From a virus (lineage: Duplodnaviria > Heunggongvirae > Uroviricota > Caudoviricetes), in the IMG/VR virus record IMGVR_UViG_3300037067_027626: DNA of 64,000 nucleotides. One strand, given 5' to 3'. The notes beneath the pieces were generated by a model. The model was not told the origin of the DNA. It saw nothing but the letters and a program-made list of their open reading frames with translations, and made no database searches. Position numbers and translations under genes: made by a program. Shown piece after piece: positions 3,040-51,300 of this stretch (position 1 is the first letter of the stretch; each line of letters starts with the position of its first letter).

Positions 3040-3306
3040 TTAACTTCTATCCCATAACATCATACAATAATTAGCTACGTCTACTAATTCTTTTTTGACT
3101 GTTGCTTTATTTTTATCAATCCATTCTTGAGAATAATTATTGTGCCACGCAAAATATTCCCCCAGTTCTTCAATCAGGCGGTGCTCAAGAAAACTAATAG
3201 GGCAATCCTGCCACCCGCCTTTATGGTCATTCTTGCACAAAACTTCATCCATTGCTTTGGCGAACTCTATTACTTGGGGATGCTTTATACTATTTAATCC
3301 TTCCAT
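3040..3306 (-). CDS. MazG-like nucleotide pyrophosphohydrolase domain protein
   Basis: An 88-aa protein matching the pattern KHP..A....L.KN.KGG.W....L.RL.EELGE....ELVDVANY, which is typical of small phage MazG/DUF1599-like proteins. Confidence 0.4.
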   Translation of the reverse strand: MEGLNSIKHPQVIEFAKAMDEVLCKNDHKGGWQDCPISFLEHRLIEELGEYFAWHNNYSQEWIDKNKATVKKELVDVANYCMMLWDRS

Positions 3307-3319
3307 CGTTAATCTCCTT

Positions 3320-4087
3320 TTAATTTACCGCCATTTTACTTGACCCGAAGTATTTAAGGGCTTCTATAAGTTTTTCTTCTGTAGTTCCATTTGGTACTTT
3401 AGACTCTGCGATATTTGCCCCCTGCTTTGATTCTTTTGAATTATAACCAAGATTAGATAATGCCCCCACTACTTCGTTATAATTTGATTCCTCATCTATC
3501 GGAGATGAATCAGGATTGACCTTGTTGCCCAAATATGCTATGCTATCATTATAGCGATTCGGTAGGAGCACTCCCGTAGCGTCAAGGGACCTGCCAGCGT
3601 GGGTATCGCTACCCTTAAACGCTTTGGTGGCAGTCGCTAAGAATCCCTCGAAATTATTCGAGTGGAGTGTCAAGGGGTTTCTTACTTTGGGGATTTTTAA
3701 AGGCTTCTCTTTATACTCTTTAACTGTTTCAAACTCTATGCGGTCTGCAAGTGTCGGCTCATGTTTCCTTCTCCTGATTCTCCCCACATAATAGGCAACC
3801 ACTAAGACCAAGGCGAAGAACCCGCCCGTCTGCCAGAAGATATAGAACTGGTGCTTGAATATAGTTATCCTGCCCAAATAAAAGAGAACCACAAATAACA
3901 AGATAGCCCCGATTACATCCATAATAATCATGGCTTTCTGTTTTTTGAAGTTCTCTTTTATAGGTTTTGATGAACCAAGGAATTTCGCTAATCTGAATAT
4001 CGGGAATAATAAAGAGTCAAGAATAAAATAACCCTGTTTTTCTGTACTTGATTGTCTAGTAGACATCGTAGCACCCCCGTTAATCAT
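3320..4087 (-). CDS. membrane protein carrying the shared FLATATKAFKGSDTHAGRSLDATGV module
   Basis: The N-terminal half has two to three hydrophobic TM segments. The middle contains a 97-nt block identical to one in ORF 11348..12226. Confidence 0.4.
   Translation of the reverse strand: MINGGATMSTRQSSTEKQGYFILDSLLFPIFRLAKFLGSSKPIKENFKKQKAMIIMDVIGAILLFVVLFYLGRITIFKHQFYIFWQTGGFFALVLVVAYYVGRIRRRKHEPTLADRIEFETVKEYKEKPLKIPKVRNPLTLHSNNFEGFLATATKAFKGSDTHAGRSLDATGVLLPNRYNDSIAYLGNKVNPDSSPIDEESNYNEVVGALSNLGYNSKESKQGANIAESKVPNGTTEEKLIEALKYFGSSKMAVN
3550..3646. repeat. copy 1 of a 97-nt near-identical block (2 mismatches) shared with 12103-12199
   Basis: The block tatagcgattcggtagg[a/g]gcactcccgtagcgtcaag[g/a]gacctgccagcgtgggtatcgctacccttaaacgctttggtggcagtcgctaagaatcc occurs twice. 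Flanking DNA diverges, but the encoded peptides stay similar. Confidence 0.7.
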
Positions 4088-4304
4088 AATACTTTTTATG
4101 TTGCCAAGTTGGTAGAATAATAGTTTCCCTATGTATCTTCCTTTTCATATTAGCACTTAATTCACCGAATTGGTCAAATAAATCTTTCTGCAACACTGCG
4201 AAATTTCTTATGCCATTTTCGGGACAGTTCCCATTACATCCATTCGTATAATGGGAACAATGCCCCACATTGTCGAAGTCGATTATCCAGTGAGGAGTAC
4301 ACAA
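4080..4304 (-). CDS. hypothetical Cys-rich protein
   Basis: A 74-aa ORF containing CSHYTNGCNGNC. Confidence 0.3.
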   Translation of the reverse strand: MCTPHWIIDFDNVGHCSHYTNGCNGNCPENGIRNFAVLQKDLFDQFGELSANMKRKIHRETIILPTWQHKKYYD

Positions 4305-4306
4305 GG

Positions 4307-4732
4307 TTAGTCATCTCCTGTGTCCACCGCATTCCCATCTTCATCGACTAATTTTTCAGAGTCATCCCTAATAACTTTTTCCGCATCTACGGATTTGCCC
4401 GATAACCTTAACTGCTCATCTTTGGCCATGGGGCGTTTTTCTACGATTTCCCCATCATTGGGATTCGTGAAAATTATATCTTCTTTCTCATAAGTTATCA
4501 CGCAGTCTACTGGTCTCATCTCATATCCTGAACGAATCTTTTCTGCACAGGAATTAACCACTCCTTCTTTGGTGGCTATATCCGCTTTAATACTTGTCTG
4601 TGCGGATTTTAGTTGGTCGAGCTTCTCATTAATTTCCGCAGAGGCTCTTGCCATCTTCCTTGAAATGTCCAGTAACTCCTTGTCTGTAAACTCATGTTTT
4701 AAGAACCGTGTCTCCGTTAGAATGTTGTCCAT
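4307..4732 (-). CDS. hypothetical acidic protein
   Basis: A 141-aa ORF with a D/E-rich C-terminus. Confidence 0.4.
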   Translation of the reverse strand: MDNILTETRFLKHEFTDKELLDISRKMARASAEINEKLDQLKSAQTSIKADIATKEGVVNSCAEKIRSGYEMRPVDCVITYEKEDIIFTNPNDGEIVEKRPMAKDEQLRLSGKSVDAEKVIRDDSEKLVDEDGNAVDTGDD

Positions 4733-4756
4733 TACTTTTTTAAATCCTCTCCTTTT

Positions 4757-5116
4757 TTATTTATTATGCTTTGTGTGCATATGGCGTTCTACATTAACAA
4801 AGTGCCTATGACATTCAGGGCATACACCATTCATAATTCGCTTCTTTGTTTTAGATATTTGACTTAAAGCACCATTTAATTGTGTCTCTGTTTGAGTTAA
4901 TTTATTTTGTGTTTCTATTAATTGTTCCCTTAACTTTTCTGCTTCAGTCTTACTAATATAACTTTGAGGATGACCATTAGGGCAGTAGAATGTTCTATGG
5001 GTTTCCAATAATCCCTGCCTTAAAGAATTGGTTAATGCAAAAAGTACTCCACAATTACAACATTCCTCTGTTACAAAAGTAGTTTGTGTTTTTGTTGTTA
5101 TAGATTCTACTCCCAT
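4757..5116 (-). CDS. zinc-finger protein
   Basis: Contains the pairs CCNC...C.NGH and CPEC. Confidence 0.4.
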   Translation of the reverse strand: MGVESITTKTQTTFVTEECCNCGVLFALTNSLRQGLLETHRTFYCPNGHPQSYISKTEAEKLREQLIETQNKLTQTETQLNGALSQISKTKKRIMNGVCPECHRHFVNVERHMHTKHNK

Positions 5117-5242
5117 TTAATTTTCTCCTTTAAATTCTTTTCTTGCATTCAGGGCAGATATTTAGTTTTAATTTATTGTTGATTTCTGAGGGTACTACTT
5201 CTTTACCACAATTAGGACACATAATTTTTTTATTTAACATCT

Positions 5243-6343
5243 TTACCATCCATCATTATGACTTTCTATTTGAGGTTTATTATCTTTCTTTTGAAAGCCA
5301 GTATTATTGTTCTTGCGGTAACTCACACCCCCCATTTTTATAAAACCGTCTTTGCCACACATCTCTCTTAATCTGTCGGCACAAGCCCCACCTATATGTG
5401 CTTCCAGTTCATCGAGATTTAGATTAGTTGTTATAATAATAGGCAACCCATTTGTATACCGTGAATCTATTATGCGGAAATAAACACTCTGGACAAAACT
5501 CAAATCTTTAGGTTTAACCTTGCCTATATCGTCTATGATAAGTAGATTTACTTTTTCGTATTGTTGGTAAACCGATTCCTCATTCTCGCCACTTTGATTG
5601 AATGTTGCCCTAATCCTTGCAAATAATTGCGTTTCTGAAACATACAGAATGGGGCAACGGTAATAAATTATTCCACTGTTAGACACATATCCTATATCAC
5701 TCTTATTTATGATATTATTTATTACCGCACAGACTAAGTGCGTTTTGCCAATACCGTAAATATTAGGGGAATATAATAAGACGGATAAACTATCCTCATA
5801 CTTATATTGAGACAGATAATTATAGGCTTTTAACTGTAATTTACTTTCGTAGTTATCAAATGTTTTTTCTTTAAATAACGAGGGGATATTACTTGACTCA
5901 ATCCATTTCTTTTTCGTTTGCGGTGTTAAATATTGTAATTCTTTATCCCATCTTTCTTTATAGGATTTCTCTATCTCTTTTTGCTTTTCTTGTTCTTTTA
6001 ACTTTTCTGCCGCTATTTCTTTATCGAAATTACCTAACGCCAGTTTAACATCGCAATTTTGTTTGCCTAATAATTGATTAACTATCTTCACTGTGGCTTC
6101 TGTGTTCCCTTTTAATTTTTCTAAATGCAACGCATATCTAGCGGAAAGGACTACTTCTTTATCGTCTAAATAATCTAACCTAGTTCCTCTTAAACAAGCA
6201 ACTATCGGAGTAGTTTGTAATTCTTGAGAGGCATTATTCAAACATGTTTTCCAGTAAGATTGGAGATTATTGCTCGATGTCTGAGAATGCTCCATTTGGT
6301 CTTTGCCCTGCGATTTCTTTAGTATCTCGTTTATTGATTCCAT
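5243..6343 (-). CDS. DnaC/IstB-like AAA+ helicase loader
   Basis: Walker A motif GIGKTHL and Walker B motif LLIIDDIG are present. The start was moved from 6385 to the Met at 6343, which has AAAGGA 9 nt upstream. It still overlaps the upstream gene. Confidence 0.65.
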   Translation of the reverse strand: MESINEILKKSQGKDQMEHSQTSSNNLQSYWKTCLNNASQELQTTPIVACLRGTRLDYLDDKEVVLSARYALHLEKLKGNTEATVKIVNQLLGKQNCDVKLALGNFDKEIAAEKLKEQEKQKEIEKSYKERWDKELQYLTPQTKKKWIESSNIPSLFKEKTFDNYESKLQLKAYNYLSQYKYEDSLSVLLYSPNIYGIGKTHLVCAVINNIINKSDIGYVSNSGIIYYRCPILYVSETQLFARIRATFNQSGENEESVYQQYEKVNLLIIDDIGKVKPKDLSFVQSVYFRIIDSRYTNGLPIIITTNLNLDELEAHIGGACADRLREMCGKDGFIKMGGVSYRKNNNTGFQKKDNKPQIESHNDGW

Positions 6344-7118
6344 ATTTATCATTCCTTTGATTTTCTTCTTTAAATTTTTGTGCATTTTCTAGCCAATTTC
6401 GCCATGCTGTTTTAGGTAGTTTTAATATTTTTTTTGTTTTGTTTTCCCACCATTCTTTAAATAATATAAGTTCATTATTGCAATCTATTAATGGATACTT
6501 ATTTATTAAGTTATAAAAATAATTATAAAAATCATCATCTAATTTTAAGTGTTGTATGTATTCTATCTTTTGTATTCTATCTTTTGTAATATTTTCTTTA
6601 GTATCTTTTGTATCTGACATGGGTGTCACTATATTTACGCTTTGGGGAGTGACATTGGTGTCAGAGGGGGAGTGACAATCTTGGCACTGTTCTGTGTTAT
6701 TTTTGTCATTGATAGTAGTGTCATTGTCAATAGTATCACTGATAAGTGTGTCAATGTCATGTGTGTCAGTGTCAATAGTGTCATGGGGTAATTTATATTG
6801 GTAGCCAACCCATTGGGAATAATCTTTTTGTAATCCATATTCATTAATTCCACCGTTTTTATTTTTAGTGATGATATTGGCACTACATAGATTATTAAGA
6901 GAACGGCATATAACTCTTGGCGGTATCCCAGTTAATTGAGAAAATTGGGATATACTAATTTTGTCTGATTTTTTATGGTATCCATATGTTTTGCGAATTA
7001 GAACACACAATATAGGGAAGTCATATTTGGATGTTATTATATTCCATAATCTTCCAAATTGGTCTAATAATTCATTGGCTATAGATGTATAACCGTCTTC
7101 TAGTTGTGGGTTGGGCAT
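6267..7118 (-). CDS. phage replisome organizer / DnaD-like replication initiation protein
   Basis: The N-terminal winged-helix region (NGYTSIANELL...IRKTYGYHKKSDKISISQFSQLTGI..R.V.RSLNNL) matches the replisome organizer N-domain of Firmicutes phages. Confidence 0.55.
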   Translation of the reverse strand: MPNPQLEDGYTSIANELLDQFGRLWNIITSKYDFPILCVLIRKTYGYHKKSDKISISQFSQLTGIPPRVICRSLNNLCSANIITKNKNGGINEYGLQKDYSQWVGYQYKLPHDTIDTDTHDIDTLISDTIDNDTTINDKNNTEQCQDCHSPSDTNVTPQSVNIVTPMSDTKDTKENITKDRIQKIEYIQHLKLDDDFYNYFYNLINKYPLIDCNNELILFKEWWENKTKKILKLPKTAWRNWLENAQKFKEENQRNDKYGINKRDTKEIAGQRPNGAFSDIEQ

Positions 7119-7717
7119 ATCATATCCTCTGATAAGTAGTCTGTTACGTTATTTATGTGTTCTGTTGTTATTTTATAATGGCAATGCCGATGAGTTATTC
7201 TACAGTTGTTCATCGTGTTATTGTTGCGATTCCAGTCATTGTGGTGAGCATCTATTAAGGAGTTTGATATATGTTCGCTACAATATTCACAAGGTAGATA
7301 TTTATATTTAGCGAGGAGAGAACTGATACGCTGTTCTTTAATGAGACTCCATAATTTATTATTACTAATAGGGTAGGGGGTCTGTTTTATTTTTGGGTTA
7401 TAGTCTTTCCATTTTGTATAATCTTCTTGTAGCCCATAAATTGTTGTGTATGATTGTTTGTCTTTTGTGATTATATTACTTTCAAAGAGGTTATTGAGCG
7501 ACCTACAAACAAGGCGTTGATTAATACCTGTTATTTGAGCAAATTGCCCTAAACTAATTTTGTCTGATTTTTTATGATACCCATATGTTTTGCGAATTAA
7601 TGCTAATAAAACAGGCATATCATATATGGATTTAAGTATTGTCCATAGACGAGGGAATTGTTCCATTAATTCATTAGCGATAGAGGTGTAACCATCTTCT
7701 AGTTGTGGTTTTGGCAT
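7100..7717 (-). CDS. replisome-organizer N-domain paralog fused to an HNH-like C-terminal domain
   Basis: The first ~90 aa are about 65% identical to ORF 6267..7118. The C-terminus carries CEYC...DAHHNDWNRNNN...N...HRHCH, an HNH-type motif. Confidence 0.5.
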   Translation of the reverse strand: MPKPQLEDGYTSIANELMEQFPRLWTILKSIYDMPVLLALIRKTYGYHKKSDKISLGQFAQITGINQRLVCRSLNNLFESNIITKDKQSYTTIYGLQEDYTKWKDYNPKIKQTPYPISNNKLWSLIKEQRISSLLAKYKYLPCEYCSEHISNSLIDAHHNDWNRNNNTMNNCRITHRHCHYKITTEHINNVTDYLSEDMICPTHN

Positions 7718-7722
7718 GACAG

Positions 7723-7914
7723 TTATCCCTCTTTGTTTTTATTACTATTATGTAAGAGTAGTAGATATGCTTCCTCCTCAATCCTCACTACACCACCAAT
7801 TTTGAGGGCTTTTAGTTTACCCTCCTTTATCCAATCTCTTATACATTGGTCGGTTACTTTAAGTTTCTCGGCTATCTCGTTAATGGTAAATAATTCCCCC
7901 ATAAAATACCTCAC
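7723..7914 (-). CDS. excisionase-family (Xis/MerR-like) helix-turn-helix DNA-binding protein
   Basis: A 63-aa protein with FTINEIAEKLKVTDQCIRDWIKEGKLKALKIGGVVRI, which is the Xis HTH signature. Confidence 0.5.
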   Translation of the reverse strand: MRYFMGELFTINEIAEKLKVTDQCIRDWIKEGKLKALKIGGVVRIEEEAYLLLLHNSNKNKEG

Positions 7915-8016
7915 TAATCATAACTAATAACAACGTGTAGAAATATTTAACAATGATTCTATATAAAAGTATAGCACTAAATCAATCCTTGTCAATCCGT
8001 ATTTTCAAAAATATTT

Positions 8017-8850
8017 TTATTGTACTGAGGGAAATTCTTGACGTAGATTTCTCATTGGTTCGTTAGAATGTGGTTCAGGCGATGTTAATGAATGGTCGCC
8101 TGTAATAGCAAATTGTTTTCCTGCCCATTCAGGAAACGAATAAATATTATGGGTATTCTCTCTTAATAAAGTTGTTAAATTATTTTTGAGGAACACTGGT
8201 ACTTTTGCTTTATAGCAAGCGTCTACTATCTCTTTTATCCATTCATATCTTGGGGGATTTTTACCACTAGACCAACCACCAATTGCCACCCAATTAATCC
8301 CCATGCCTTTTAACGAAAAGACTAAGTCATCTTTGCTCATTCCCCAATTCGTTAAAGGTTCGATAGACAACCAAGCGTGTTTAGACCTTACATCTATCAT
8401 CGGTTTATAGGCTTCTGTTAACGCTACGTCATCACACACAGTTACGCCACAATAAGCATTGTCAGGGAATATTCCCCATTTCTGATAACCGTCAGGATTC
8501 TTTGTTAGAAAAAAGAATTGATGCCGATGGCAATCCTTAATAACATCGAAAACTTTTGTTTTTAAATCTTTACCATAAGGCGATTCTTTTGTAGCACACA
8601 TTGTTGTTGGTGAAACCCACTCTCCAAACAAATCCCCTGTAAAGCAAACACCTATTCGTGATGGTTTCTTTAGAGATAAAGGCTCTAATAACTTTTCAGG
8701 ATGTAAAGTTGGTTCAAAACTTTTCCCAAATCTATGAGCCATACTTCTCGCCCAACACTTATCAGCAACAGAGCAAACATCTAAGCCGTGACGGCATCCA
8801 CTGTAGAAATTCCAACAAGTGTCAAGATATTCGATTCCTGTTTTCTGCAT
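8017..8850 (-). CDS. phage Gp37/Gp68 family protein (DUF5131)
   Basis: The N-terminal WNFYSGCRHG..C..C.KCWA Cys motif and overall length match DUF5131. Confidence 0.55.
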   Translation of the reverse strand: MQKTGIEYLDTCWNFYSGCRHGLDVCSVADKCWARSMAHRFGKSFEPTLHPEKLLEPLSLKKPSRIGVCFTGDLFGEWVSPTTMCATKESPYGKDLKTKVFDVIKDCHRHQFFFLTKNPDGYQKWGIFPDNAYCGVTVCDDVALTEAYKPMIDVRSKHAWLSIEPLTNWGMSKDDLVFSLKGMGINWVAIGGWSSGKNPPRYEWIKEIVDACYKAKVPVFLKNNLTTLLRENTHNIYSFPEWAGKQFAITGDHSLTSPEPHSNEPMRNLRQEFPSVQ

Positions 8851-8851
8851 A

Positions 8852-9820
8852 CTATTTTCCTACATCACCAAGAGTAATATTCTGTCCTTGCGGAACTACC
8901 CATACCTTAACTTCATCACCCATTCTGTCTATAAAGATATACTGTAACACATTATCCGTTAATGTCTCCTCAATCTTTTTATTTGCGGAAACCTGTGCAT
9001 CGGTTACGATTTGAATAGACTGTGCTTCACCATTAGCTCTTGCAATTGCCGCATTAGCCTGTCCTACTGCCGCCGCTTCTACCTGTTGTGCCTCAATCTT
9101 AATCTGCTCTAGTTTGATTTGGGCTTGCAGCAAAGACTGTTGTTGTGAAACCTTTGCCTCAATAGCCTTGGTGAATTCATCAGAGAATTCAAAATTAGTA
9201 ATATTAACAACTTCCGTGATTATGCCACGTTCCAATAATCTTGATGATAGTGCGGTTGAAATTGCCTCTTTAACCTCAGCCCTGCGGGTTATCATATCCT
9301 CCGCATTAAACTTGGCGGTGATTTCTTTTACGATTTCCTGTATGGCAGGATGGGCAATAACTTCAATATAGTTCTTGCCAATTGTCCTGTATACCGTGAC
9401 CGATTCCGAAGGGCTTAATTTGTAGTTTATTGCTACCTTAGTCATTACATCTTGTAGGTCTTTACTGGCGGCGGTAGAGTCAGTTTCAAACTTCTGTGTT
9501 TGAATATTCATCAGGATTACTTTATCTATGGGGGATTTTGATTTTAACCCTTGCTCAAGATACGTTCCTGTAGTAGCACCAAAGCGAGTGACCACACCAA
9601 CATTACCCAGTGGCACGATGACTATAACGGTGAGCATTAGCCCGACAATACCGAGGGCTATTCCTCCGATACCTAATGATATTTTAACTCCCTTGCTTAT
9701 ACCGTCAGTTTCACTCACATTACCGTGTCTGTCCTCTTTAATTTTTTTAATGGGGATAAAAATACAACCTAATAATAAAATTAATCCTACTGTACCAATG
9801 AACCAACCTGTTAATGCCAT
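8852..9820 (-). CDS. SPFH/band-7 (prohibitin/HflC-like) membrane protein
   Basis: An N-terminal TM helix is followed by an SPFH core and a long Ala/Gln-rich coiled coil (EAKVSQQQSLLQAQIKLEQIKIEAQQVEAAA). Confidence 0.6.
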   Translation of the reverse strand: MALTGWFIGTVGLILLLGCIFIPIKKIKEDRHGNVSETDGISKGVKISLGIGGIALGIVGLMLTVIVIVPLGNVGVVTRFGATTGTYLEQGLKSKSPIDKVILMNIQTQKFETDSTAASKDLQDVMTKVAINYKLSPSESVTVYRTIGKNYIEVIAHPAIQEIVKEITAKFNAEDMITRRAEVKEAISTALSSRLLERGIITEVVNITNFEFSDEFTKAIEAKVSQQQSLLQAQIKLEQIKIEAQQVEAAAVGQANAAIARANGEAQSIQIVTDAQVSANKKIEETLTDNVLQYIFIDRMGDEVKVWVVPQGQNITLGDVGK

Positions 9821-9872
9821 TTTAATAAATCTCCTTTTGTTTATTTAACATTTAACTTTATTCCTTATTTGA

Positions 9873-10799
9873 TTAAGAATAACCGAGTCTTGCCTTTACT
9901 AATTTACGACATAATACATCAGCCTCTTTTCTATTCGGTGAATGTGGTAGTGACGACAGTATATCATTAAAGTTGGAATCTACATCTTCTCCTAACATAG
10001 TCATTAGTTCATCGTAGGAAAATTTGCCGTTGCGAATATCTCTTATAAATTGAGCGTCAGGTCTGGGGAAAGTTATTTTACCACAACTTAATAATTCCCG
10101 CCCTTCACTTATCAATCTGAATAAATGAGAGGCGTGTTTTGTATCATAACCATAATGAGCTTCTAAGTCTGCCCTGTCCTTATTGCGGTTTGTTTGCCAT
10201 TCCTTATATTTACCCCAATAAGTATTGGCGTTAATAAAAGCCTTTTCTTTGCGTAGTACTTCTAAAACAGGGACACTCAATTCGATATTTTCGCCGTGAG
10301 CCAACAACTCATCATAAGCACCTATTTGGTCTTTAGTAATGGTATTGGTATCAGGTAAACCAAACTCTTGCCGTGTGGGTTTATGTGTTGGCGGATGTAA
10401 TAGCCATTCTCTATGCTGTTTAATTCTATGAAGTTGTGAAACCGCATATCCTGAGAATGTATGCTTCGCTTTAGTAGATAAGAATAAGAAACGATTAGCG
10501 ATTATTTCCTCCCATTCAGGAGTAAAGATTTCTGTATAATCTGAATAGATAGGGATAAATAGCAACTCTAGTATATTGGGATTATTGTCCAAGCATAGTT
10601 GAAAGAATTTGGTAATTTCCCAAAATATTTCATCGGGCTTATAGGACTCTACCTGTTCTACCTTTTCTAAATAACCTAAGTAGAATTCCTCAGTAGGAAT
10701 AATAACTCCTCTAATATCTAAGTCAGACGATGGTGTGGCTGTCCCATATAAGTGAGAGCCAGTTATACATTTACAGATTACCTTAAAACGATTATCCAT
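9873..10799 (-). CDS. Pol-beta-superfamily nucleotidyltransferase
   Basis: Contains the GSHLYGTATPSSDLDIRGV motif (GS...D.D) near the N-terminus. Confidence 0.5.
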   Translation of the reverse strand: MDNRFKVICKCITGSHLYGTATPSSDLDIRGVIIPTEEFYLGYLEKVEQVESYKPDEIFWEITKFFQLCLDNNPNILELLFIPIYSDYTEIFTPEWEEIIANRFLFLSTKAKHTFSGYAVSQLHRIKQHREWLLHPPTHKPTRQEFGLPDTNTITKDQIGAYDELLAHGENIELSVPVLEVLRKEKAFINANTYWGKYKEWQTNRNKDRADLEAHYGYDTKHASHLFRLISEGRELLSCGKITFPRPDAQFIRDIRNGKFSYDELMTMLGEDVDSNFNDILSSLPHSPNRKEADVLCRKLVKARLGYS

Positions 10800-11417
10800 T
10801 TATTTAACTTCCTTATTCACTAACTGAAAGGAATTATCTCTACGTTTTCTTATTGGTATCCATTCTTTACCAACTATATGTGACCACCCTTCTCCCCTGG
10901 CGATACTTTCTATAGTGCTGTGATGTACTCCGAATACTTGTGAGGCATCTTTAGAATTCCATAAACCGCATGGTATTGATGCTCTTATAATACGGACAGC
11001 TTCATCAGTCAATTTAACTGAACCTTGTTTCTCGCCCATAGCAGTTCGTCCATGTTTTCTTTTATCCGCTTCATTGTCTGAGTAAGTCCCCCATAAAAGG
11101 TTATTAGGAATATTATTTAATTTGTTACCATCTAAATGACGAACTACGTATCCCTTTTGTGGTTTACTTCCATGAAAGTAATTACAAATTACTGAATGAA
11201 CTATCATACTAGTTCTTTTACTATCTATTATGAAACTAACAAAAGCATAACCATTACTACCAATACCTTCTTTTAGTCGAAAAGGCGATGGCTTTCTTGA
11301 CTGGTTCCTTGCGTTAGAATAACAATATATATGCCCATCGCTACCAGCTAAATATTTGTTGTTTGTGCCTTGTATAGGCAAAAGTTGTATATCCAAACCC
11401 ACGGATAATTCTTCCAT
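10800..11417 (-). CDS. HNH homing endonuclease (HNH_3/AP2-like)
   Basis: The motif HLDGNKLNNIPNNLLWGTYSDNEADKRKHG is present. The 5' end overlaps the upstream ORF. Confidence 0.55.
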   Translation of the reverse strand: MEELSVGLDIQLLPIQGTNNKYLAGSDGHIYCYSNARNQSRKPSPFRLKEGIGSNGYAFVSFIIDSKRTSMIVHSVICNYFHGSKPQKGYVVRHLDGNKLNNIPNNLLWGTYSDNEADKRKHGRTAMGEKQGSVKLTDEAVRIIRASIPCGLWNSKDASQVFGVHHSTIESIARGEGWSHIVGKEWIPIRKRRDNSFQLVNKEVK

Positions 11418-12226
11418 TGATAACCCTCTTTTTTATTAATATTATCCCAAAGTAATTTATATTCATTTAAGTTGTTACAACCCTCTTTATGGGCATCATC
11501 TTCTGTCATATTGTTCAAGTGTTGTACTTTTATATTTGTGATTTTAATGTGATAACGAGCTTCTTTCTCAAATATGAACATTGGGGAACGTAGATACCAG
11601 CCGCATTTTGTAGAATGTCCATTGATAACGATTAAGTCTTTTGGTTTGGTATCATTAAAATAAACAGGATATGCAGGTGTTTGTTGGTAACGGTGGAATG
11701 TCCATTCAGTTTTACCTGAATCGAAGTCCTTATAATTCCAAAAACCATAAGCATAATGAGGTTCTTTTATATATACAATTTCATTAAGGTGATAACGAGG
11801 CTTGATTAGAATTGGTTTATTATTTATATGGTCAAAAATAAAACTACCTAGATGTTCCCGTTGCTCAGATAAACAAGCAAAATGCCATTCATTAGGATTC
11901 TCATTTATTTCTTTTAATCCCGATAATCTACGAGTTTGAGTCTTCCTTTTCTCAACTATTGCTTTTATCATGTCGGGTTTAAATAAAATTCCGTTTATGC
12001 TTCTACCTTCCTTCCTTATAAAACATCCTGAGAAAACCTTATATTTTAATATTGGGGTTGAATCGGGATTGATTTTGCTATCCCAATATGCTACGCTATT
12101 AGTATAGCGATTCGGTAGGGGCACTCCCGTAGCGTCAAGAGACCTGCCAGCGTGGGTATCGCTACCCTTAAACGCTTTGGTGGCAGTCGCTAAGAATCCT
12201 CCTAATTCATTAGTGGGGAGTGTCAA
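11348..12226 (-). CDS. ASCH-domain protein with N-terminal shared module
   Basis: The internal MIKAIVEKRKTQTRR sequence is an ASCH signature. The N-terminal 60 aa are encoded by the second copy of the 97-nt block. The start is a TTG directly after the upstream stop codon. Confidence 0.45.
   Translation of the reverse strand: MTLPTNELGGFLATATKAFKGSDTHAGRSLDATGVPLPNRYTNSVAYWDSKINPDSTPILKYKVFSGCFIRKEGRSINGILFKPDMIKAIVEKRKTQTRRLSGLKEINENPNEWHFACLSEQREHLGSFIFDHINNKPILIKPRYHLNEIVYIKEPHYAYGFWNYKDFDSGKTEWTFHRYQQTPAYPVYFNDTKPKDLIVINGHSTKCGWYLRSPMFIFEKEARYHIKITNIKVQHLNNMTEDDAHKEGCNNLNEYKLLWDNINKKEGYQWKNYPWVWIYNFCLYKAQTTNI
12103..12199. repeat. copy 2 of 97-nt near-identical block
   Basis: Same block as at 3550-3646. 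Confidence 0.7.
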
Positions 12227-12502
12227 TTACTCTTTAAGGGATTGAACTAATTTATTAAAGAATCCCCATTGGCTATCGCCGATTACAACAACATCCCCAC
12301 TATCGGATGTACCTATATAACCCTCTCGTCTAGCCATATCTATGAGCTTTTGAATTTGAGCTTTGGCAGTATTGTGTGTCATACAAATAAGGCATTTTGT
12401 TGTTTGTGGATTATAAGCTGAACCATCAATACAATTCCCACCTTCGTTACACGGTAGTTTGATATTCTTTATTTCCTCATCTGTTAATAAATAATCACTC
12501 AT
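12227..12502 (-). CDS. hypothetical Cys-containing protein
   Basis: A 91-aa ORF. Confidence 0.4.
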   Translation of the reverse strand: MSDYLLTDEEIKNIKLPCNEGGNCIDGSAYNPQTTKCLICMTHNTAKAQIQKLIDMARREGYIGTSDSGDVVVIGDSQWGFFNKLVQSLKE

Positions 12503-16066: not shown

Positions 16067-16285
16067 GCTTTTCTCTCATATCTTTTTAACATTATGGGTC
16101 TTAGTAATAAGTAAATGAACGCCAAAACCAACATTGAGGATAATAGCCATTCTCTTTTAGACATTAAATTACCACTCACCCAACCCATGAGTATATAAGG
16201 AAAATTCTCAATTATAGTTTTCATTTTTAACCCTCTCTTTAATTAACATATTCCATACCGAGATATTTATTTTGGGAATTATCCC

Positions 16286-16314
16286 TTGACATCGTGTATA
16301 AGGTGTGGTACAAT
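16286..16314 (+). promoter_or_regulatory. sigma70-type promoter TTGACA-N17-TACAAT for the transposase gene
   Basis: TTGACA lies at 16286-16291 and TACAAT at 16309-16314, with a 17-nt spacer. An AAGGGG ribosome-binding site follows before the ATG at 16338. Confidence 0.5.
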
Positions 16315-16337
16315 ACATGATGTAAGGGGTGAGAAAT

Positions 16338-17198
16338 ATGAACAAATACACAGTTAAAACTTTTGATAAAGAATTTCCGAATGATGATTCTTGTCTTGAG
16401 TGGATTAAGAATCATCGCTATCCTAACGGAATTGAATGCCCTATCTGTAAGAAAGTAACTAAACATCATAAGATGACTGGTCGTCCTGTTTATGAATGCG
16501 ATTATTGTGGGCATCAAATATCGCCAATGGCTAATACTATTTTTCACAAATCGCCTACTTCTTTGAGGACTTGGTTTCACGCTATCTTTTTGATGTCCAA
16601 TACAAGGTGTGGAATCTCTGCTAAACAACTTCAACGTGAGACTGGTGTTACTTATAAAACGGCTTGGAGAATGTTTAAACAGATTCGCACACTTCTCAAT
16701 GAAAGATATGGTATGTTTTCGGGAATGGTCGAAGTTGATGAAACATACGTTGGTGGTGCTAGGCAAGGCAAGCGTGGTCGTGGTGCAAGCGGTAAGACCA
16801 TCGTAGCGGGCATTGTAGAACGACAAGGCAAAGTTTCCGCTAGTGTCGTTTCTGATGTTAAATCTCACACCCTTATTCCCATGATTCAAGAAAAGGTTGC
16901 TCAAAATACCACTGTATTTACCGATGAAATGCCTAGTTATAATAGACTTGAGCAAGTTGGTTTTAACCATGAAGTCATTAACCATGCGAATAAGGTCTAT
17001 GTTGATGGTGAAATCCACACCAACACAATTGACGGCTTTTGGGCATTGGTTAAAGGTGGTATCAAGGGTGTTTATCATCATGTTAGTCCTGAATATTTAG
17101 ATTCCTATGTTAATGAATACGAATTTCGTTATAACCATCGCAAAGACGAAACACCTATGTTTCAGTCTTTTCTGAATCGGATTGAGCCTCACGCTTGA
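16338..17198 (+). CDS. IS1595-family (ISXO2-like) DDE transposase
   Basis: The N-terminus has the zinc ribbon CPICK...CDYCGH. Further motifs follow in the order expected for IS1595 transposases: SAKQLQRETGVTYKTAWRM, EVDETYVGG, HTNTIDGFWALVKGGIKGVYHHVS, and YVNEYEFRYNHR. An alternative GTG start lies at 16329. The antisense ORF 16239..17081 is rejected. Confidence 0.75.
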   Translation: MNKYTVKTFDKEFPNDDSCLEWIKNHRYPNGIECPICKKVTKHHKMTGRPVYECDYCGHQISPMANTIFHKSPTSLRTWFHAIFLMSNTRCGISAKQLQRETGVTYKTAWRMFKQIRTLLNERYGMFSGMVEVDETYVGGARQGKRGRGASGKTIVAGIVERQGKVSASVVSDVKSHTLIPMIQEKVAQNTTVFTDEMPSYNRLEQVGFNHEVINHANKVYVDGEIHTNTIDGFWALVKGGIKGVYHHVSPEYLDSYVNEYEFRYNHRKDETPMFQSFLNRIEPHA

Positions 17199-18142: not shown

Positions 18143-18477
18143 TTAGTTACCCCCTTTGAAGCTATACATGATATTAAGGGATAATTCCCTTTATTTTTAT
18201 TATATCCCAAAATTCTTGCAATGCTATTCGAAGGGATTGCGTCTTTATAATGGAATTTATAATATCCGCCCAATATTAACTCCGAATTGCCAGATAGAGT
18301 AACCATAGAACTGTTATCTAAATATACTTTTGTGGAAGTTGAGGTATGTTCAAATGCTATAACTTTGCCCTCTATAGTGTTATTAACATAGGTATAATCA
18401 GCAAAAGGATATAAGTATAATGGCGAGAAGAATAATAATAAACAACATGTGATGATTATATATTTAACCATTTTCAA
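18139..18477 (-). CDS. small secreted protein
   Basis: Has an N-terminal hydrophobic signal-like segment. Confidence 0.4.
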   Translation of the reverse strand: MKMVKYIIITCCLLLFFSPLYLYPFADYTYVNNTIEGKVIAFEHTSTSTKVYLDNSSMVTLSGNSELILGGYYKFHYKDAIPSNSIARILGYNKNKGNYPLISCIASKGVTK

Positions 18478-35542: not shown

Positions 35543-35700
35543 AAATACGCCTAATACGACTAGGCGTATCTAATACGACTAGGCGTATTAGGCGTATACT
35601 AGGCGTATCTTGTCTTATTCCCTATTCCCTCAAATATCGCAATTCCCTATTATCTCAATTTGTATCAATTCCCTATTGTTAAAATTCCCTATTCCCTATC
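35543..35700. repeat. iteron cluster: 2 copies of taatacgactaggcgtat, 4-5 copies of aggcgtat, then 6 copies of attccctat
   Basis: Dense short direct repeats in the pattern typical of iteron-type origins. Confidence 0.55.
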
Positions 35701-36830: not shown

Positions 36831-37254
36831 GTTGGATTTTTTAGTGAGACTGTCTAGTAAAATCATTCTGCAATAGGTGGTTAACTGCATACCCTTCTTC
36901 TCGGCTTCTACCTTCAATAACCCCTTTTCTCTCAAGGGCATACGTATGAAAACTACGGGCATGTCTTTCTTTCTATAGACCAATATAACACACCTCTATA
37001 TTTATACTGTGAAAAAACTAGCACATATTTAGCGTGTTGTCAAGTGGTCGTGCGTAAATATTTTTGCCCCAAAATACAATACTATATCACTTTGCTATTG
37101 TATTATTATTTTACTGTGTTATCCTACTACTTAAAAGGTACTACACTTGAATCTAAAGTTGGAGGTCTATTATTTTAAGAATATATGAAGGCTATTTTTG
37201 CATTAATCCTTGCGGCAATCGGACTTTACATAAATAAAATTGTGTCTTTGGGTA

Positions 37255-38566
37255 GTAATATCCATCGAATAACCACCCTAACTCTGGAAAAGCTAAACTC
37301 AATATTGAGCAAGCTAATCACAGAACTAAACACGAAAATGAATCGTGAAATGCGTGGAGGTCATATAGGTGGAATCCTTAAATGGGATTATGAGATGACC
37401 CGATACTCCAATAAAAATTGGAGATTAACAGATGAGGAGTCAACTTACTGCCAGGTCTTAATACAACTATAGCTACAATCACTACCCCCACGTGCATAAG
37501 TGCGTCTTTATAGAGTAATCTATATCGAAATTGCCCTAATTCGGTGAAGCCTAAAACGAGAGTCATGGTAATGCCGAGCCAAGCAGAATAGAAATATTCG
37601 GGCGTGTGTAGAGAACATAGAGGCAACCCCTAGTAATAGGGTGAAAACATGTTCCGTCACTCCGTGAAAGCGGAGATTACAGATAGATTCCACAGGGGTA
37701 AGATAATTTGCCCACTCATATAGTAATATGTGAGTTAAATTGCTCCAAATAGGGGGAAGCTAAAAACCGTAAGGTTCATGCTAATCGCCTAACTAAACTA
37801 GAGAATGAATCTAGGAAACTGATGACAGACTAGACGGAGCAAGTCCTGAATAGGACTAAGGTATAGTCGGACACTCCGAATAAATTCGGAGACTAACAAG
37901 TGAAGTGGCATGGTGGGTGTTACGTAATGAAAGATTTGCGTCTTTATAGAGTAATCTATATTGAAAAGAACCACAAATTCGGGGAAAGCTAAAACGAAAG
38001 TCATGCTAACCGCCGAACTAAACTGCTGAATGAAGGCAGGATAAGCGTAGAGAGTAGATGTGGTTGCCCTTTAATTAGGGATAAGGTGTACTCCGACACT
38101 CTAAAGAAATTTGGAGATTAACAAGTGTAATCGTATAATAAGCGAATGCGACCTTTAATAGTGATATTAATTGAATAACCGCCCTAACTCTGGGAAAGCT
38201 AAAATGAAAGTCATGCTAACCGCAGAACTAAATTACCGAATGAAGGTATAAATGCGTAGAGAACATATAGGCGGGGTCTTACGAAAGACCGTGAGATGTT
38301 CCGATACTCATACGAAAGTAAGAGATTAACAAAAAATTCGCAGCCATGTTGGTAGTCCTGAGAACAATCGGGACTTTGAACAGTAATGTTCATCGAATAA
38401 CGCATCAAATTCGGGGAAGCCTAAACTCAATAATGAGCATGGTAATCGCCGAGCTAAACCAAGGAATGAACTTGGGAAACTGTGGACAGACTAGATGGTG
38501 CGAATCCCTATAAATGGGATTGTGGTATAGTCGGGCACTTAACGAAAGTTAAGATTACAGAATCGG
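37255..38566 (+). ncRNA. array of 6 tandem ~180-245-nt structured RNA-like units (unclassified)
   Basis: Unit spans are approximately 37261-37430, 37501-37683, 37722-37900, 37935-38125, 38152-38335 and 38375-38566. Conserved blocks are ggRaagcYuaaa, RgYCAUGSUAAYCGCCGARCUAAA, a hairpin with loop GAAUGAA, and a 3' GAGAUUAACA. Hairpin stems covary between units: ctgc/gcag, tacc/ggta, ccaag/cttgg, ctaga/tctag, cacg/cgtg. A second hairpin covaries as ctcaa-tat-ttgag, aacc-gtaa-ggtt and ctca-ataa-tgag. Two subtypes exist (units 3 and 6 versus units 2, 4 and 5). Confidence 0.55.
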
Positions 38567-38665: not shown

Positions 38666-39020
38666 AGAAGTATTCCTTAATTCTATTGGCTATTTCTGAT
38701 ATTGGGTGTTTTTTAACTTCGTGTTCCCATAATATCAATGTTTTATAACCACGCTCTAATAAGAATTTCATTCTACCATTATATTTTTGATGTTCTTTTA
38801 GGCGAGGGTTATTATCGTTGTGATGATAATCTCCAAAATGTTCTATGAGCCAATTATGTTGTTTATGTTTGAAATCGGGTAATTTACCATCTATATCTTC
38901 TTCTGGGTTATAACCAATAAATTCCCACTCATTAGGGAAGTATGCGCCATTGATAACCACAATTATCACAGAGATATGCTTGGAGATATTGTTTTTTACC
39001 TTTACTCCATTTTGTTCTTT
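38658..39020 (-). CDS. DUF559/Vsr-like endonuclease domain protein
   Basis: DFKHKQHNWLIEHFGDYHH...RMKFLLERGYKTLILWEHEV matches the DUF559 C-terminal signature. The start is taken at the internal Met. This ORF overlaps 38932..39681 in another frame. Confidence 0.4.
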   Translation of the reverse strand, partial: KEQNGVKVKNNISKHISVIIVVINGAYFPNEWEFIGYNPEEDIDGKLPDFKHKQHNWLIEHFGDYHHNDNNPRLKEHQKYNGRMKFLLERGYKTLILWEHEVKKHPISEIANRIKEYFYK

Positions 39021-39681
39021 TCCCATATTTATAGATTTTATCGCTTGTTTGGCATTTAGGACATATTTTTGTAGGCAATTCTTCTGATAGGCTTTCATAT
39101 TCGTCTTTTGGAATATACGTATCGCCATCCAATTTAACGTGTTCCATGGGATATAGTTTATCGGTTTCATAGTTATATTCAGACACATTTTTATATTTGC
39201 CACGTTTATAATCCGACGGCATATAGAATGTTTTACCAGTCGATGTGTCCATATAGCGCTGAACTTTACCACCCCTGCGGGGAATTTCTCCGACTTTACG
39301 ATACCGTTTCAGTTCTGTATTTATTGGTTCGGTTATTTCTACTTTTGGATTTTTTTTAAAAGCATTCGGGTTATATTGTGGTTTCATTGGTAATTCTGGA
39401 ACATTATTAACTATCGAATTATTTTGTGTAAATAGATTAGAATTAATCAAACTTCGGTTAGAAAGTTGCCATTTTATAGCCTCCTCAATTGTTTTATGGC
39501 GTGGTTTAGATAGATTGCATTTATGGTGCATGACTGCTAAATTATTAGCTTCAAACTCGCCCCCGTTGCATCTATCTATAATATGCCCTAAATCATAAGA
39601 ATCATAATCCACTTCTGCGTTACACACCCAACAGATTCCTTTATCACGTCTGTAAATACCTATCCTTAAATTATCACTCAT
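38932..39681 (-). CDS. HNH endonuclease with C-terminal InsA/IS1595-like zinc ribbon
   Basis: The N-terminus has CWVC...DLGHIIDRCNGG...NL.VMHHKCN. The C-terminus has CPKCQTSDKIYKYGKRTKWSKGKKQYLQAYLCDNCGYQW. Confidence 0.45.
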   Translation of the reverse strand: MSDNLRIGIYRRDKGICWVCNAEVDYDSYDLGHIIDRCNGGEFEANNLAVMHHKCNLSKPRHKTIEEAIKWQLSNRSLINSNLFTQNNSIVNNVPELPMKPQYNPNAFKKNPKVEITEPINTELKRYRKVGEIPRRGGKVQRYMDTSTGKTFYMPSDYKRGKYKNVSEYNYETDKLYPMEHVKLDGDTYIPKDEYESLSEELPTKICPKCQTSDKIYKYGKRTKWSKGKKQYLQAYLCDNCGYQWRILP

Positions 39682-41160: not shown

Positions 41161-41748
41161 TTGAAGTGCGGTAGGTGTTCGTCAGTTAATATAGGTAAAG
41201 GGGGGGAAGACCGTTTTCATCGGCAGTTATGGTTATGCAGGGATTGTGGTTTTAGGTCAACTAATGTTGAAAATTATAACCATGTAAATTCAGTTATTGC
41301 TAAGATGCCACCATTAAAGAAGTTGTGGTCAAGAATAACGATAGATGAAAATAAGGGGTGTTGGAATTGGCAAGGTAAGCCTGATACGGAAGGATATGGA
41401 GAAGTAAGGATTTCTAGTCAACTTTATAAAGCCCATGTTTATTATTACCAAATATTTGAAGGAGTTATTCCAGAGGGTTTGGAGTTAGACCATCTATGCC
41501 GAAATCGTATTTGTGTAAATCCGAAACATTTAGAACCCGTGACGCATCAAGTGAATGTTTTACGAGGGAAAAGTCCTCAATCAATTAATGCTCTTAAAAC
41601 GCATTGTATTCATGGGCATATATTATCAGTAGAAAATACATATGAATCTAGTAGAAATAATTTCAAGTATAGGCAATGTAAAATATGTACTAGGGAAAGG
41701 GCTAAAAGATATTTGTTGGATAAAAAGCAATTAATACTAACAGTTTAA
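41161..41748 (+). CDS. HNH endonuclease with N-terminal zinc ribbon
   Basis: Contains GCWNWQGKPDTEGYGEVRI...LELDHLCRNRICVNPKHLEPVTHQVN, the classic HNH motif. The N-terminus has CGRC...CRDCG. Confidence 0.6.
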   Translation: MKCGRCSSVNIGKGGEDRFHRQLWLCRDCGFRSTNVENYNHVNSVIAKMPPLKKLWSRITIDENKGCWNWQGKPDTEGYGEVRISSQLYKAHVYYYQIFEGVIPEGLELDHLCRNRICVNPKHLEPVTHQVNVLRGKSPQSINALKTHCIHGHILSVENTYESSRNNFKYRQCKICTRERAKRYLLDKKQLILTV

Positions 41749-48317: not shown

Positions 48318-51300
48318 TTGGATGCGTTAGAATATTTTAAATCTCAAGAATTGAAATCGCCCGATGCTCCGAAGCCTTTGGTCTATACGGGTGCTCCCAA
48401 TGTCAGCACACCCATAGGTTATTCTCAACCTATGATGGGCGACCAAACACTAGAGCAGTTTCAACAAGATAATGTGCAACTTCAAGACGGTTCGTGGGTT
48501 ACAAAGGAAGAATACGATAAACTATCCGAGGAAGACAAGGCTTATATTCTGGCGAATGGTATAGAAGCCTATAATAAATACAAACAGGAACAACTTGAGA
48601 TATTTGAGGCGGCTCACGTTAAACTCAATGATGAGTCATGGGTATCGAAAGAAGAATATGATAAATTAAGCGAAGAAGATAAAGCCTACTTAATGCAAAA
48701 CGGTATTGAGGCGTTCAATACCTATAAGAATACACAACTTACGGAATTCAAAACTACTCACATTCAACTTGGTGATGAATCATGGGTTTCTAAAGAAGAA
48801 TTCGATAAACTTTCCGAGGAAGATAAAGCCTATTTAACCGCTAATGGGATTGAGGCTTTCAACATCTACAGACAGGCACAATTACAAGAGTTTGAATCTA
48901 CTCATGTGAAATTAAATGACGGTACATGGGTAACGAAAACAGAATACGACAAACTCTCTGAAGAAGATAAGTTATATCTGATAAATAATGGCGTTACCTC
49001 TTACACCGCTATGGTAACGGAACGGTATAATACCGCTAAATCAACACTACAGAATTTTATCAATCCAGACGGAACTCTTAGATTGAATGAAGCGGTTAAT
49101 GCAGGGATAACGGATTTAAGCGTATATAAGAATGCGGGCTATAACGTAACACAGATAGATGTTGATAATATTAAAAATATACCGCAATATGAAGAACCGA
49201 CACCATTACCAACTCCGATTGAACCTCATCCATTTGACCCGACATACGGGAATTACGTATTAACCAAGCCTGATGAAAATGACCCTACTACTTGGATATT
49301 TACCGACCCGATGACAGGCGAGCAGTATGATTATAACGGGAATTACATTGGGAGTATTCCGCCACCAACCCCACCAGCAAATCAGCCGACTGTTGTATCG
49401 CCAACGGAAGTCGCACCTATTCCAGAGACAGAAGCACATCCGTTTGACCCGACATTCGGTAATTATGATTATGACTCTGAAACTGGAATTTATACCGACC
49501 CGATTACAGGGGAACAGTATGATACTAACGGGAAATATCTAGGTAATGTTGCCCCACAAACACTGCCGAATTATACTCCGCAGTTAGTTAATATTTCACC
49601 GACAGCACCTAATGTAGTAGAGGCTTATAATCCCGATAATAATATGGGGCTTACTACCGCACCGTCTTACGGGGCAATAGACATATCTTCGGGAATGATT
49701 TGGGATGGCACAAAATGGATAACCTCTGCCGAAGCAAAAGAGAGAGGGATAGAGTCAAGGGGATATTATGACCCGATGCAACGCAGTGAAGGTGGTCAAT
49801 TAACGGGCGGAAATTACATAATCTCAAACGGTATTTTAATCCCGACTACTTTCGACCCGACTAAAATTGCCCCAAGCAATATTACGATAGAAGGCGATTT
49901 AGGAACAGGTTATGTCATAAAAATAGACGGGAATGTTTTGAGTACCCAAGGTATGACACCCGACCAGGTTACCAGATGGATAGCAGACATGGGCGGAAAT
50001 CAAATGGCAATTATGCAGTGGGTAATGACCGATGTAGGTATGAGAGGCGGTATGGCGGGTGCGGATAATCTTGCTTTAAAGGCTTCGGAAACTTATCAGT
50101 ATCTAACAAATACCTATAATAACTCAACAGGGCAATTACAATATCAGACTGGCGTTACTCTAGGACTGTTTAAAGATACCGATATACCGATATTTAATGA
50201 CGAAGGGAAAATATCAGGGATAATTACATCGGAAATGCAGAAAGATATGTCCTCAGAAATACTAGACATATTAAGGTCGGCAGACAGAAACAGTATTGAC
50301 TCAGTCAATAAAGCCATAGAAATCGCCAATAACTTATATAAAGGCAACGAAATCAACATGGATGATATGTCTTTCCTTGTTGATGTTTTAGGGCAAGAAA
50401 AAGCCGACCAGTGGGTTGCCAATATTAGGGCGAAACTTGCAGAACAACAGGCTATCGCAGATTATAACAACGATTTAGTTACCACTCTTTCAACGAGTAT
50501 ATATAATGATATTTCTAACGGCAGAGAGCCTAACTTCCAATATGTAGCACTCTTAAAGACTCTCTTAGGTGAAGAAGGGGAAAAGATTGTCAATGAGTGG
50601 ATAGATAAAATTACCACTCAGGGCATTAAAATAAAGGCATTATCGAGTAGTATATTAAACGCTATAGAAAACAGTGGTAAGGCAAATCCCGATGATGTGG
50701 CGGAATTAGAGAAATTATTAGACCCACAGGCGGTTGCGGAATGGATAGATAATTTAAAATCCGATAAATTTACTAAGGGATTAAAAGGCACTACACTACA
50801 GCAAGCCTCACAAAATATTTCACAGGTACTTGCCGAAAATCCTGATGCAGAACTGGATGCCAATGATGTTTCGGGTCTTATATGGGGAATGGGGCAAGAT
50901 GAGGCTAATGATTGGATAGAAAAAGTAAGGCAACAGAACAGGGATATAAATATACTATCCGAGAAAATACAGAACGATATTTGGAACGGTAAAGCACCTA
51001 ATCCCGAAGATGTTGCTCAATTGTCTGATTTAGTTACACCTCAAACCGCACAGGCTTGGATAACTACATTATCAGATAAACAAAAAGGTTTTGCAGATAG
51101 TCTAAAAGCCTTACCTCAAGAATTACAGGATGCCTATGCTATGGGCGGAATGGAAGGGTATCTACAGGCGGTAGATGCTTACAATAAAAATCTTGAGGAA
51201 AATTTCACCATAGTAGGGCGAGATGGAAACGGGAATCCTTTATATCTATCCAATACTGAACATGTCGCATTAATGGATAGGTTATCCAAAGACCCTGATG

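Follow-up and report, generated by a model that had tools for sequence, protein, structure and literature searches.

A 177-nt in-frame repeat with a near-identical core in two unrelated genes of an uncultivated phage, tentatively read as a case of gene conversion

The DNA analysed here is a stretch of 64,000 nucleotides (nt) from the Caudoviricetes virus record IMGVR_UViG_3300037067_027626, called the window below, and it comes from a phage that has not been cultivated and whose genome is about 125 kb long. Its early/replication region, where all genes around the repeat are on the minus strand, holds two copies of a 177-nt sequence, each lying in frame in a different, unrelated gene. The copies are in direct orientation, 8,553 nt apart, and show 87% identity over 177 nt without any gap. 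Inside the repeat, a core of 97 nt is near-identical between the copies. We tentatively favour gene conversion between the two copies as the process that has kept the core alike, with a confidence that stops just short of even. We file the element as a dispersed intragenic repeat with a concerted core.

An earlier note on this DNA had reported two blocks differing at 2 of 97 nt, with diverging flanks, embedded in two otherwise unrelated genes, mid-gene for copy 1 and N-terminal for copy 2. Direct comparison confirmed these points and the quoted peptides, and showed that the block belongs to an in-frame module of 59 codons (Table 1). The two core differences are at 3587/12140 and 3567/12120, and the longest perfect run between the copies is 59 nt (repeat positions 28-86). 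At the start of the repeat the first 9 nt (TTGACACTC) are identical, and positions 10-27 hold 8 differences. After the perfect run, single differences were observed at positions 87 and 107, and differences become frequent again at 122-171. The identity of the left flank (27 nt) and the right flank (54 nt) is 70% and 76%, respectively. Core and flanks carry 2/96 and 21/81 differences, respectively (Fisher p = 1.7e-6). The outer edges are sharp, with no similarity past either end of the repeat; a possible upstream extension of the homology by ~20 nt with indels (AATCCC..AAAG..TAA) was too weak and was not used. A profile built from the two copies (nhmmer) detected no third copy in the window, nor in 7.2 kb of left and 8 kb of right flanking DNA. 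The adjoining DNA was recovered from another sample, so the copy count covers ~79 kb of the ~125-kb genome.

The substitution types among the copies are balanced (10 GC>AT, 10 AT>GC, and 3 A/T swaps). As the mismatches are of all types and not adenine-specific, we rejected the template and variable repeats of a diversity-generating retroelement as an explanation. A reverse transcriptase had no match among ~30 open reading frames (ORFs) of the window compared with Pfam and PHROGs, with many window ORFs unscanned, nor among the Pfam annotations of contigs covering 3.6-22.5 kb.

The sense frame is the only open one of the repeat, and this holds for both copies. The flanks gave a ratio of nonsynonymous to synonymous change (omega) of 0.46, and their differences are distributed 6:6:9 over the three codon positions. 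Two Phage_rep_O paralogues of the same phage (6858-7118 / 7457-7717), used as a control for ordinary paralogue divergence, gave an omega of 0.13 and 20:12:40 differences. The proportion of differing synonymous sites (pS) was 0.04 in the core (1/25 sites) and 0.40 in the flanks (7/17.5 sites). One of the two core differences is a Leu/Pro replacement. The composition of the core is also atypical: its GC content is 55-56% compared with 36% for the window, making it the GC-richest 100 nt of the region, and its GC does not vary with codon position (0.56/0.56/0.56), against a GC at third codon positions (GC3) of 0.29 ± 0.05 in 31 phage genes. The flanks drift almost neutrally. A core frozen at synonymous sites, near-neutral flanks, and an atypical GC and codon pattern together show that it is the nucleic acid, rather than the protein, that is conserved or homogenised.

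A conversion tract is marked by near-zero divergence, at synonymous sites as well, inside diverged homologous sequence, and this is the pattern of the repeat. The earlier note had proposed that the core was homogenised by gene conversion; the synonymous identity is as this proposal predicts. Of the readings considered, gene conversion would need the fewest assumptions to account for the perfect run of 59 nt and the near-absence of synonymous change in the core. The perfect run is also more uniform than what selection on a structured RNA usually leaves. Any identical repeat of ~100 nt should undergo gene conversion while a phage genome replicates, and among dispersed intragenomic repeats the process is a general phenomenon, for example in duplicated bacterial genes. 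As in other cases of concerted evolution by gene conversion, one genome holds a contiguous tract identical at synonymous sites within diverged homologous surroundings. The present case differs in that the tract is only ~100 nt long, lies in two unrelated phage genes, coincides with a GC-rich hairpin, and has no orthologues showing paralogue co-evolution.

A possible course of events is as follows. Illegitimate recombination would have placed an ectopic copy of the cassette in the ASCH-like gene, with the membrane-protein gene (or its relative) as the probable source, and the ASCH-like protein would now start at a TTG directly behind the preceding stop codon. Non-reciprocal homologous recombination during phage replication would then homogenise the core, for which the perfect stretch of 59-97 nt would be a sufficient substrate, and the flanks would by now be too diverged to join the conversion tracts. 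A reciprocal crossover would cost the phage the 8.5-kb replication module between the copies, and such events would be purged. Breakage and repair may be favoured by the core itself, which is GC-rich and forms a hairpin. The encoded peptide would be a tolerated passenger, carried as a linker in one protein and as an N-terminal extension in the other.

A driving endonuclease is not part of this scheme. The earlier note had an HNH endonuclease gene abutting copy 2 and suggested that it might drive the conversion. This gene abuts the 3′ end of the ASCH-like ORF instead; the distance to copy 2 is 633 nt and takes in the whole ASCH-like gene, and no HNH gene was found near copy 1. The window holds at least four HNH-type genes or domains, at 38932-39681 (−), 41161-41748 (+), 10800-11417 (−), and 7100-7717 (−), and with this number in 64 kb adjacency to any one of them carries little weight. 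A cut in the identical core could not tell donor from recipient either, which counts against HNH-driven conversion. A link of the HNH gene to the repeat is not supported, and the gene has no demonstrated role.

Several observations weigh against gene conversion as the explanation. No related genome carries the element, and no gene for a recombinase was found. The tract kept alike is at the same time the stretch of 100 nt with the highest GC in the region (56% vs 36%; GC3 0.56 vs 0.29 ± 0.05), which conversion alone does not predict. It is also among the most stable local folds of the 64 kb (z = −2.6 to −3.0), and conversion predicts neither the rank nor the z value. Finally, a decamer at the 5′ end is conserved and pairs with the core, which erosion from the edges alone does not predict.

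The GC content, the stable fold, and the decamer would be explained by another reading, which we regard as possible and on balance doubtful: the core would be a structured nucleic acid with a function of its own, in all likelihood a sense-strand RNA, carried in frame in two early transcripts. A protein or nuclease would then recognise a GNRA-capped, bulged hairpin of 15 bp within a multi-stem domain. Such a site could act in antitermination of the nut/put type, in the control of processing or stability, or in autoregulation by the ASCH-like protein, a putative RNA binder. The peptide would be no more than a by-product, and gene conversion may act as well. The sense strand of both copies is predicted to fold into a domain closed by CACUCC/GGAGUG, which contains a variable hairpin A, a UAGC/GCUA stem, and hairpin B (Table 1). 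Hairpin B was predicted in all folds of either copy. The GNRA hairpin GGGUAGCGAUACCC and the CUGCCA/UGGCAG stem, both pointed out in the earlier note, are indeed present on the sense strand.

The stability of this domain (domain 1) was compared with several null models. Against shuffled sequences the z values were −2.6 / −3.0 on the sense strand and −1.9 / −3.0 on the antisense strand. Against the same peptide recoded with phage codon usage they were −3.6 / −4.2, with 0/300 recoded sequences as stable. Composition-preserving codon permutation gave −1.7 / −2.7. The same permutation gave −0.6 for the core alone, and the stability is thus mostly due to the choice of GC-rich codons. Both copies are within the top ~10 distinct loci of the whole window for 115-nt fold stability, both strands considered. 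In the consensus fold the 2 core differences and 18/21 flank differences are unpaired, and the other 3 keep pairing, two double changes being among them. The 23 copy differences therefore break no consensus pair. The outermost 5′ decamer (TTGACACTCC) is perfectly conserved beyond an 18-nt stretch of 44% divergence and is complementary to the GGAGUG of the core.

Other results do not fit a selected RNA structure as well. As only two sequences are available, covariation is not significant: 43/46 pairs are invariant, and 122/500 shuffles reach the observed covariation score. The strand is ambiguous, since the antisense strand folds as well. As parts of translated frames, the two copies would have their structure unfolded by passing ribosomes. 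Moreover, 95/97 positions are invariant, loops included, which is more than structural selection usually gives. Rfam gave nothing at the gathering score and nothing at E <= 10 around either copy, and a tRNA/tmRNA search gave none. The cis-acting RNA or DNA element that the earlier note had offered as another option has support from the GC island, the top-ten 115-nt fold, and the z values of −2.6 to −3.0. A possible antisense promoter at 3516-3544 (+) is a weak candidate: it is a consensus match, and the region shows no excess of such matches.

Searches for relatives of the element, which the earlier note had proposed for the 97-mer and its peptide, found no homologue in the collections used. 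Blastn and megablast against 50,697 phage records gave no DNA match to the repeat, and exact or degenerate core patterns had none in IMG/VR, JGI metagenome contigs, or 185,579 GTDB genomes. Peptide-guided scans of IMG/VR, JGI metagenomes, and GTDB were empty, as was tblastn against phages. The two-copy nhmmer profile found no additional copy in any fetched locus. IMG/VR relatives of the neighbouring genes were absent or 33-39% identical.

Among known RNA signals, the lambda nut (boxA/boxB) and HK022 put sites resemble the repeat only in having two same-orientation copies in early units and a GNRA-type loop. The repeat differs from them in lying inside reading frames, in having no boxA consensus, and in having no known antiterminator; nut and put sites are untranslated, shorter, and near early promoters. 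The group I introns of the same phage (RF00028) are, similarly to the repeat, structured RNA with more GC than the AT-rich genome around them, which carries several HNH genes, and the repeat length is a multiple of 3. Unlike them, the copies have no RF00028 match, and copy 2 lies upstream of an ancestral start, where an intron makes no sense. A group I intron was rejected, as RF00028 had no match at E <= 10 in 3300-3800 or 11900-12300, while the same search mode finds six matches at 37222-38554.

These six matches are an observation in their own right. They are full-length, ~200 nt each, and stand in tandem on the plus strand, spaced 8-60 nt (Table 1). The gathering score of RF00028 is 50, and the whole-window run at the gathering score missed all six. 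The 'exons' between them are tiny, with no obvious interrupted gene, and this group I-like array looks more unusual than the 177-nt repeat.

A broader version of the structured element is that the core represents a new kind of cis-acting signal, RNA or single-stranded DNA, which is tolerated inside reading frames and bound by a phage or host factor; we consider this somewhat unlikely. Read on the other strand, its possible roles would include that of a decoy for a Cas6f-type nuclease. On the plus strand, positions 3592-3646 / 12145-12199 read CUGCCA...UGGCAG-UCG-CUAAGAAU, which appears to resemble the type I-F CRISPR repeat, CUGCC-GUAUA-GGCAG-CUAAGAAA. The likeness has its limits: the loop exceeds that of the CRISPR repeat by 32 nt, the handle is shifted by 3 nt, and there is no Rfam CRISPR-DR match. 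RNA anti-CRISPR repeat mimics have similarity to host CRISPR repeats, their own promoter, and a non-coding location (PMC10651486).

The two host genes show how the element sits in its surroundings. Host gene 1 encodes three predicted N-terminal helices of membrane type, the module, and a C-terminal tail with a weak, sub-threshold RuvA_C-like match; in the protein cluster search this protein had no homologue besides itself. In host ORF 2 the module is followed by a 17-codon linker and an ASCH-like protein, which matches phrog_874, a family of ~200-aa (amino acid) phage proteins, with E = 1.7e-23. The earlier note had called it an ASCH protein; this needs correction, as the Pfam ASCH match is only sub-threshold (E = 0.054 here; 7/13 family members match, best 8e-4). 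The family-invariant residues are retained in the ASCH-like part. None of 209 ASCH-like homologues covers the first ~76 residues; the alignments begin at residue 77, and every homologue inspected starts M-K/N-G-I-L-F-K-P-D-M opposite this residue. At the position where the inspected homologues have an ATG or GTG start, the phage has an ATA codon, and a strong Shine-Dalgarno-like sequence (AAGGAAGGAAGG, 12006-12017) precedes it, 7 nt upstream. In the two closest relatives (L002 and L003) the ASCH-like gene is packed against its upstream neighbour, insert-free. The homologues start at the ATA site and none has the module, and the element is therefore a lineage-specific addition. The 228-nt leader (177 + 51 nt) is a graft placed before the ancestral start, whose ATG was lost to ATA.

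The leader is open in frame, with a chance probability of ~1%, which argues that it is translated. We infer that translation of the N-terminal extension begins at the TTG of copy 2 and is possibly coupled to the upstream TAA stop. Either a non-canonical start is used at ATA, or the start has moved 76 codons upstream; some weak initiation may still occur at ATA. The earlier note had pointed out that this TTG is part of a TTGACA. Copy 2 does open at TTG, and no sigma-70 promoter was detectable on the minus strand at 3673 or 12226, total sites not being above those in shuffled sequences.

An open frame of 59 codons in both copies, the sole one, would also suit a true protein module that both host proteins need, for instance a short peptide for interaction or targeting, with the DNA identity left by a recent transfer. 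Many flank replacements are conservative (S/T, I/V, D/N), and the loss of the ancestral ATG implies a translated extension. The earlier note had advanced such a module of ~50 aa; the block is indeed a shared in-frame module, of 59 codons, and conservation of its peptide is not supported. The flank omega of 0.46, against 0.13 in the control, comes without a third-position excess, the core has changed Leu to Pro or the reverse, and its codon usage is foreign to the phage. The module peptide had no match in Pfam, PHROGs, PDB, or 5.8 billion protein clusters, and an exhaustive HMMER search of 1.84 billion representatives gave no true module homologue; four extra matches were rejected as tandem-repeat proteins summing many ~9-bit stretches. 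AlphaFold gave the module a predicted local distance difference test score (pLDDT) of <40 in both host proteins, which is weak evidence and uninformative because there is no alignment depth. A recent transfer also leaves the 26% flank divergence unexplained. We therefore give a protein module little credence.

Equally improbable in our view is a small selfish mobile element, of the type of a miniature inverted-repeat transposable element (MITE) or a Rickettsia palindromic element (RPE), inserted in frame at permissive sites. The repeat lies in frame in two unrelated genes, at an inter-domain linker and at an N-terminus, encodes an orphan peptide, has sharp boundaries, and is palindromic, structured, and foreign to the phage in composition. 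RPEs are likewise in-frame intragenic insertions (review PMC10969869), of ~150 nt, palindromic, with orphan peptides at permissive sites of unrelated ORFs, and an IS1595-family transposase is encoded in the same phage. In contrast to such families, which have dozens of copies, only two were found in ~79 kb, here in a phage instead of a bacterial chromosome, and no other genome or metagenome searched has a copy or a family member. No terminal inverted repeats or target-site duplications are common to both copies. Their ends are unlike the 27-nt inverted repeats of the resident insertion sequence (IS), and a MITE of the resident IS1595 was rejected on these grounds.

The IS itself was observed as follows. 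An IS1595-family DDE transposase gene lies at 16329-17198 (+), identified by a Pfam match on an identical Logan contig. Inverted repeats of 27 nt (16274-16300 / 18163-18189, 89% complementary) bound the transposase segment, which also encloses a minus-strand gene of 294 aa with a weak proteasome-subunit match. The segment 16274-18189 looks like an insertion sequence resident in the phage.

It is very unlikely that the repeats are recombination sites bracketing the 8.5-kb replication module for excision, amplification, or exchange. This module holds the ASCH-like, HNH, RlaP, Band_7, DUF5131, HTH_17, two Rep_O, and DnaC-like genes. The direct repeats exactly flank the replication genes, and an identical core with diverged arms recalls hybrid att sites. 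In the relative L003 (9 kb), where several genes are 50-70% identical and the repeat element is absent, the ASCH-like gene lies beside a zinc-ribbon/MazG-like cluster, and in this phage the cluster adjoins copy 1. Against this, no integrase or recombinase was detected between or beside the repeats, no deletion or circle-junction contig was seen, and the arms are homologous rather than unrelated.

An artefact of assembly or a chimera can practically be dismissed. Mis-joins are possible at repeats, and one matching contig has an unrelated GC-rich tail, but the same sequences occur in four independent datasets, with copy-specific flanks 100% identical on both sides of both copies. Contigs from Logan SRR6484325, Logan SRR18595300, and ENA ERZ27247358 are 99.95-100% identical to the window; these samples, other than the source, hold the same clone (at least 99.95% identical). 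Contigs L001 and L008 continue uninterrupted across copy 1. L011 and L012 reach copy 2 from the upstream gene, with its copy-specific left flank, L013 has one end within copy 2 and the other within copy 1 (window 12170 to 3617), and L014 begins within copy 2. The Logan contigs L011 and L013 end at window 12170 and 3617, within the 59-nt perfect stretch. Logan contigs are assumed to be built with k = 31, and a stop inside this stretch is then expected. Both copies with their own flanks were thus recovered in three other samples, and the assembly artefact that the earlier note had considered is refuted.

The tail of L008 (ENA ERZ27247358 k141_1111810) was observed separately. This contig is identical to the window up to position 1544, and its positions 5060-5251 are unrelated, GC-rich, and bacterial-gene-like. 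The tail is probably an assembly chimera and less likely a junction with other DNA.

Table 1. Window positions of the repeat copies, their predicted hairpins, the host genes, and the group I intron matches
Feature	Position	Strand	Description
Repeat copy 1	3497-3673	minus	177 nt = 59 codons; residues 139-197 of ORF 3320-4087, mid-gene, in frame
Repeat copy 2	12050-12226	minus	177 nt; codons 1-59 of ORF 11348-12226, right after the TAA of gene 12227-12502
Core of copy 1	3550-3646	minus	97 nt, near-identical to copy 2; 56% GC, flat over the three codon positions
Core of copy 2	12103-12199	minus	97 nt, near-identical to copy 1
Hairpin B, copy 1	3592-3633	minus	42 nt; CUGCCA / GCGU / GGGUA stems, GCGA (GNRA) loop, CCAAA and UUAA bulges
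Hairpin B, copy 2	12145-12186	minus	same sequence as in copy 1
Host gene 1	3320-4087	minus	255 aa; three predicted N-terminal helices (membrane-like), module, C-terminal tail
Host ORF 2	11348-12226	minus	292 aa; module, 17-codon linker, ASCH-like protein (phrog_874)
ATA codon	11996-11998	minus	where inspected homologues have an ATG or GTG start
Upstream gene	12227-12502	minus	91 aa; its TAA is directly followed by the TTG of copy 2 (TAA/TTG)
HNH_3 endonuclease gene	10800-11417	minus	overlaps the 3′ end of the ASCH-like ORF; 633 nt from copy 2
RF00028 match 1	37222-37423	plus	20.9 bits
RF00028 match 2	37484-37676	plus	34.4 bits
RF00028 match 3	37690-37891	plus	54.4 bits
RF00028 match 4	37919-38116	plus	39.7 bits
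RF00028 match 5	38125-38324	plus	19.4 bits
RF00028 match 6	38350-38554	plus	66.6 bits

Other features of the window were also recorded. The two Phage_rep_O paralogues are adjacent (6267-7717, −) and have a common N-terminal region of 261 nt with 72% DNA identity and an omega of 0.13; the second paralogue has an HNH-like motif at its end. Of the sigma-70-like promoters in the region, the best is at 7968-7995 (−), with TTGACA, a 16-nt spacing, TATACT, and an upstream TG (11/12 positions). It lies between the repeat copies and precedes the HTH_17 (excisionase-like) gene and the replication genes. A near-perfect palindrome at 35545-35597 (25+25 nt, 92% complementary, 3-nt spacer) ranks first in the window for 50-nt fold stability on both strands and may be a bidirectional terminator or a protein-binding site. 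Tandem repeats of ~200 nt at 49221-49561 (+), 74-86% identical, lie inside an ORF of 2813 aa (48318-56759) and probably encode repeated domains of a large structural protein.

The phage belongs to a lineage with almost no characterised relatives. For annotators, the 292-aa 'ASCH' ORF is a chimera, and its first 76 residues are outside the family. If gene conversion alone accounts for the core, the repeat would be a clean small case of a coding fragment grafted onto a gene with replacement of its start codon, and of concerted evolution of ~100-nt repeats in a phage, useful for understanding mosaicism and unsurprising. If selection maintains the core as an RNA or DNA signal, a structured element surviving in two translated frames would be unusual and would give a handle on early-gene regulation in this phage.

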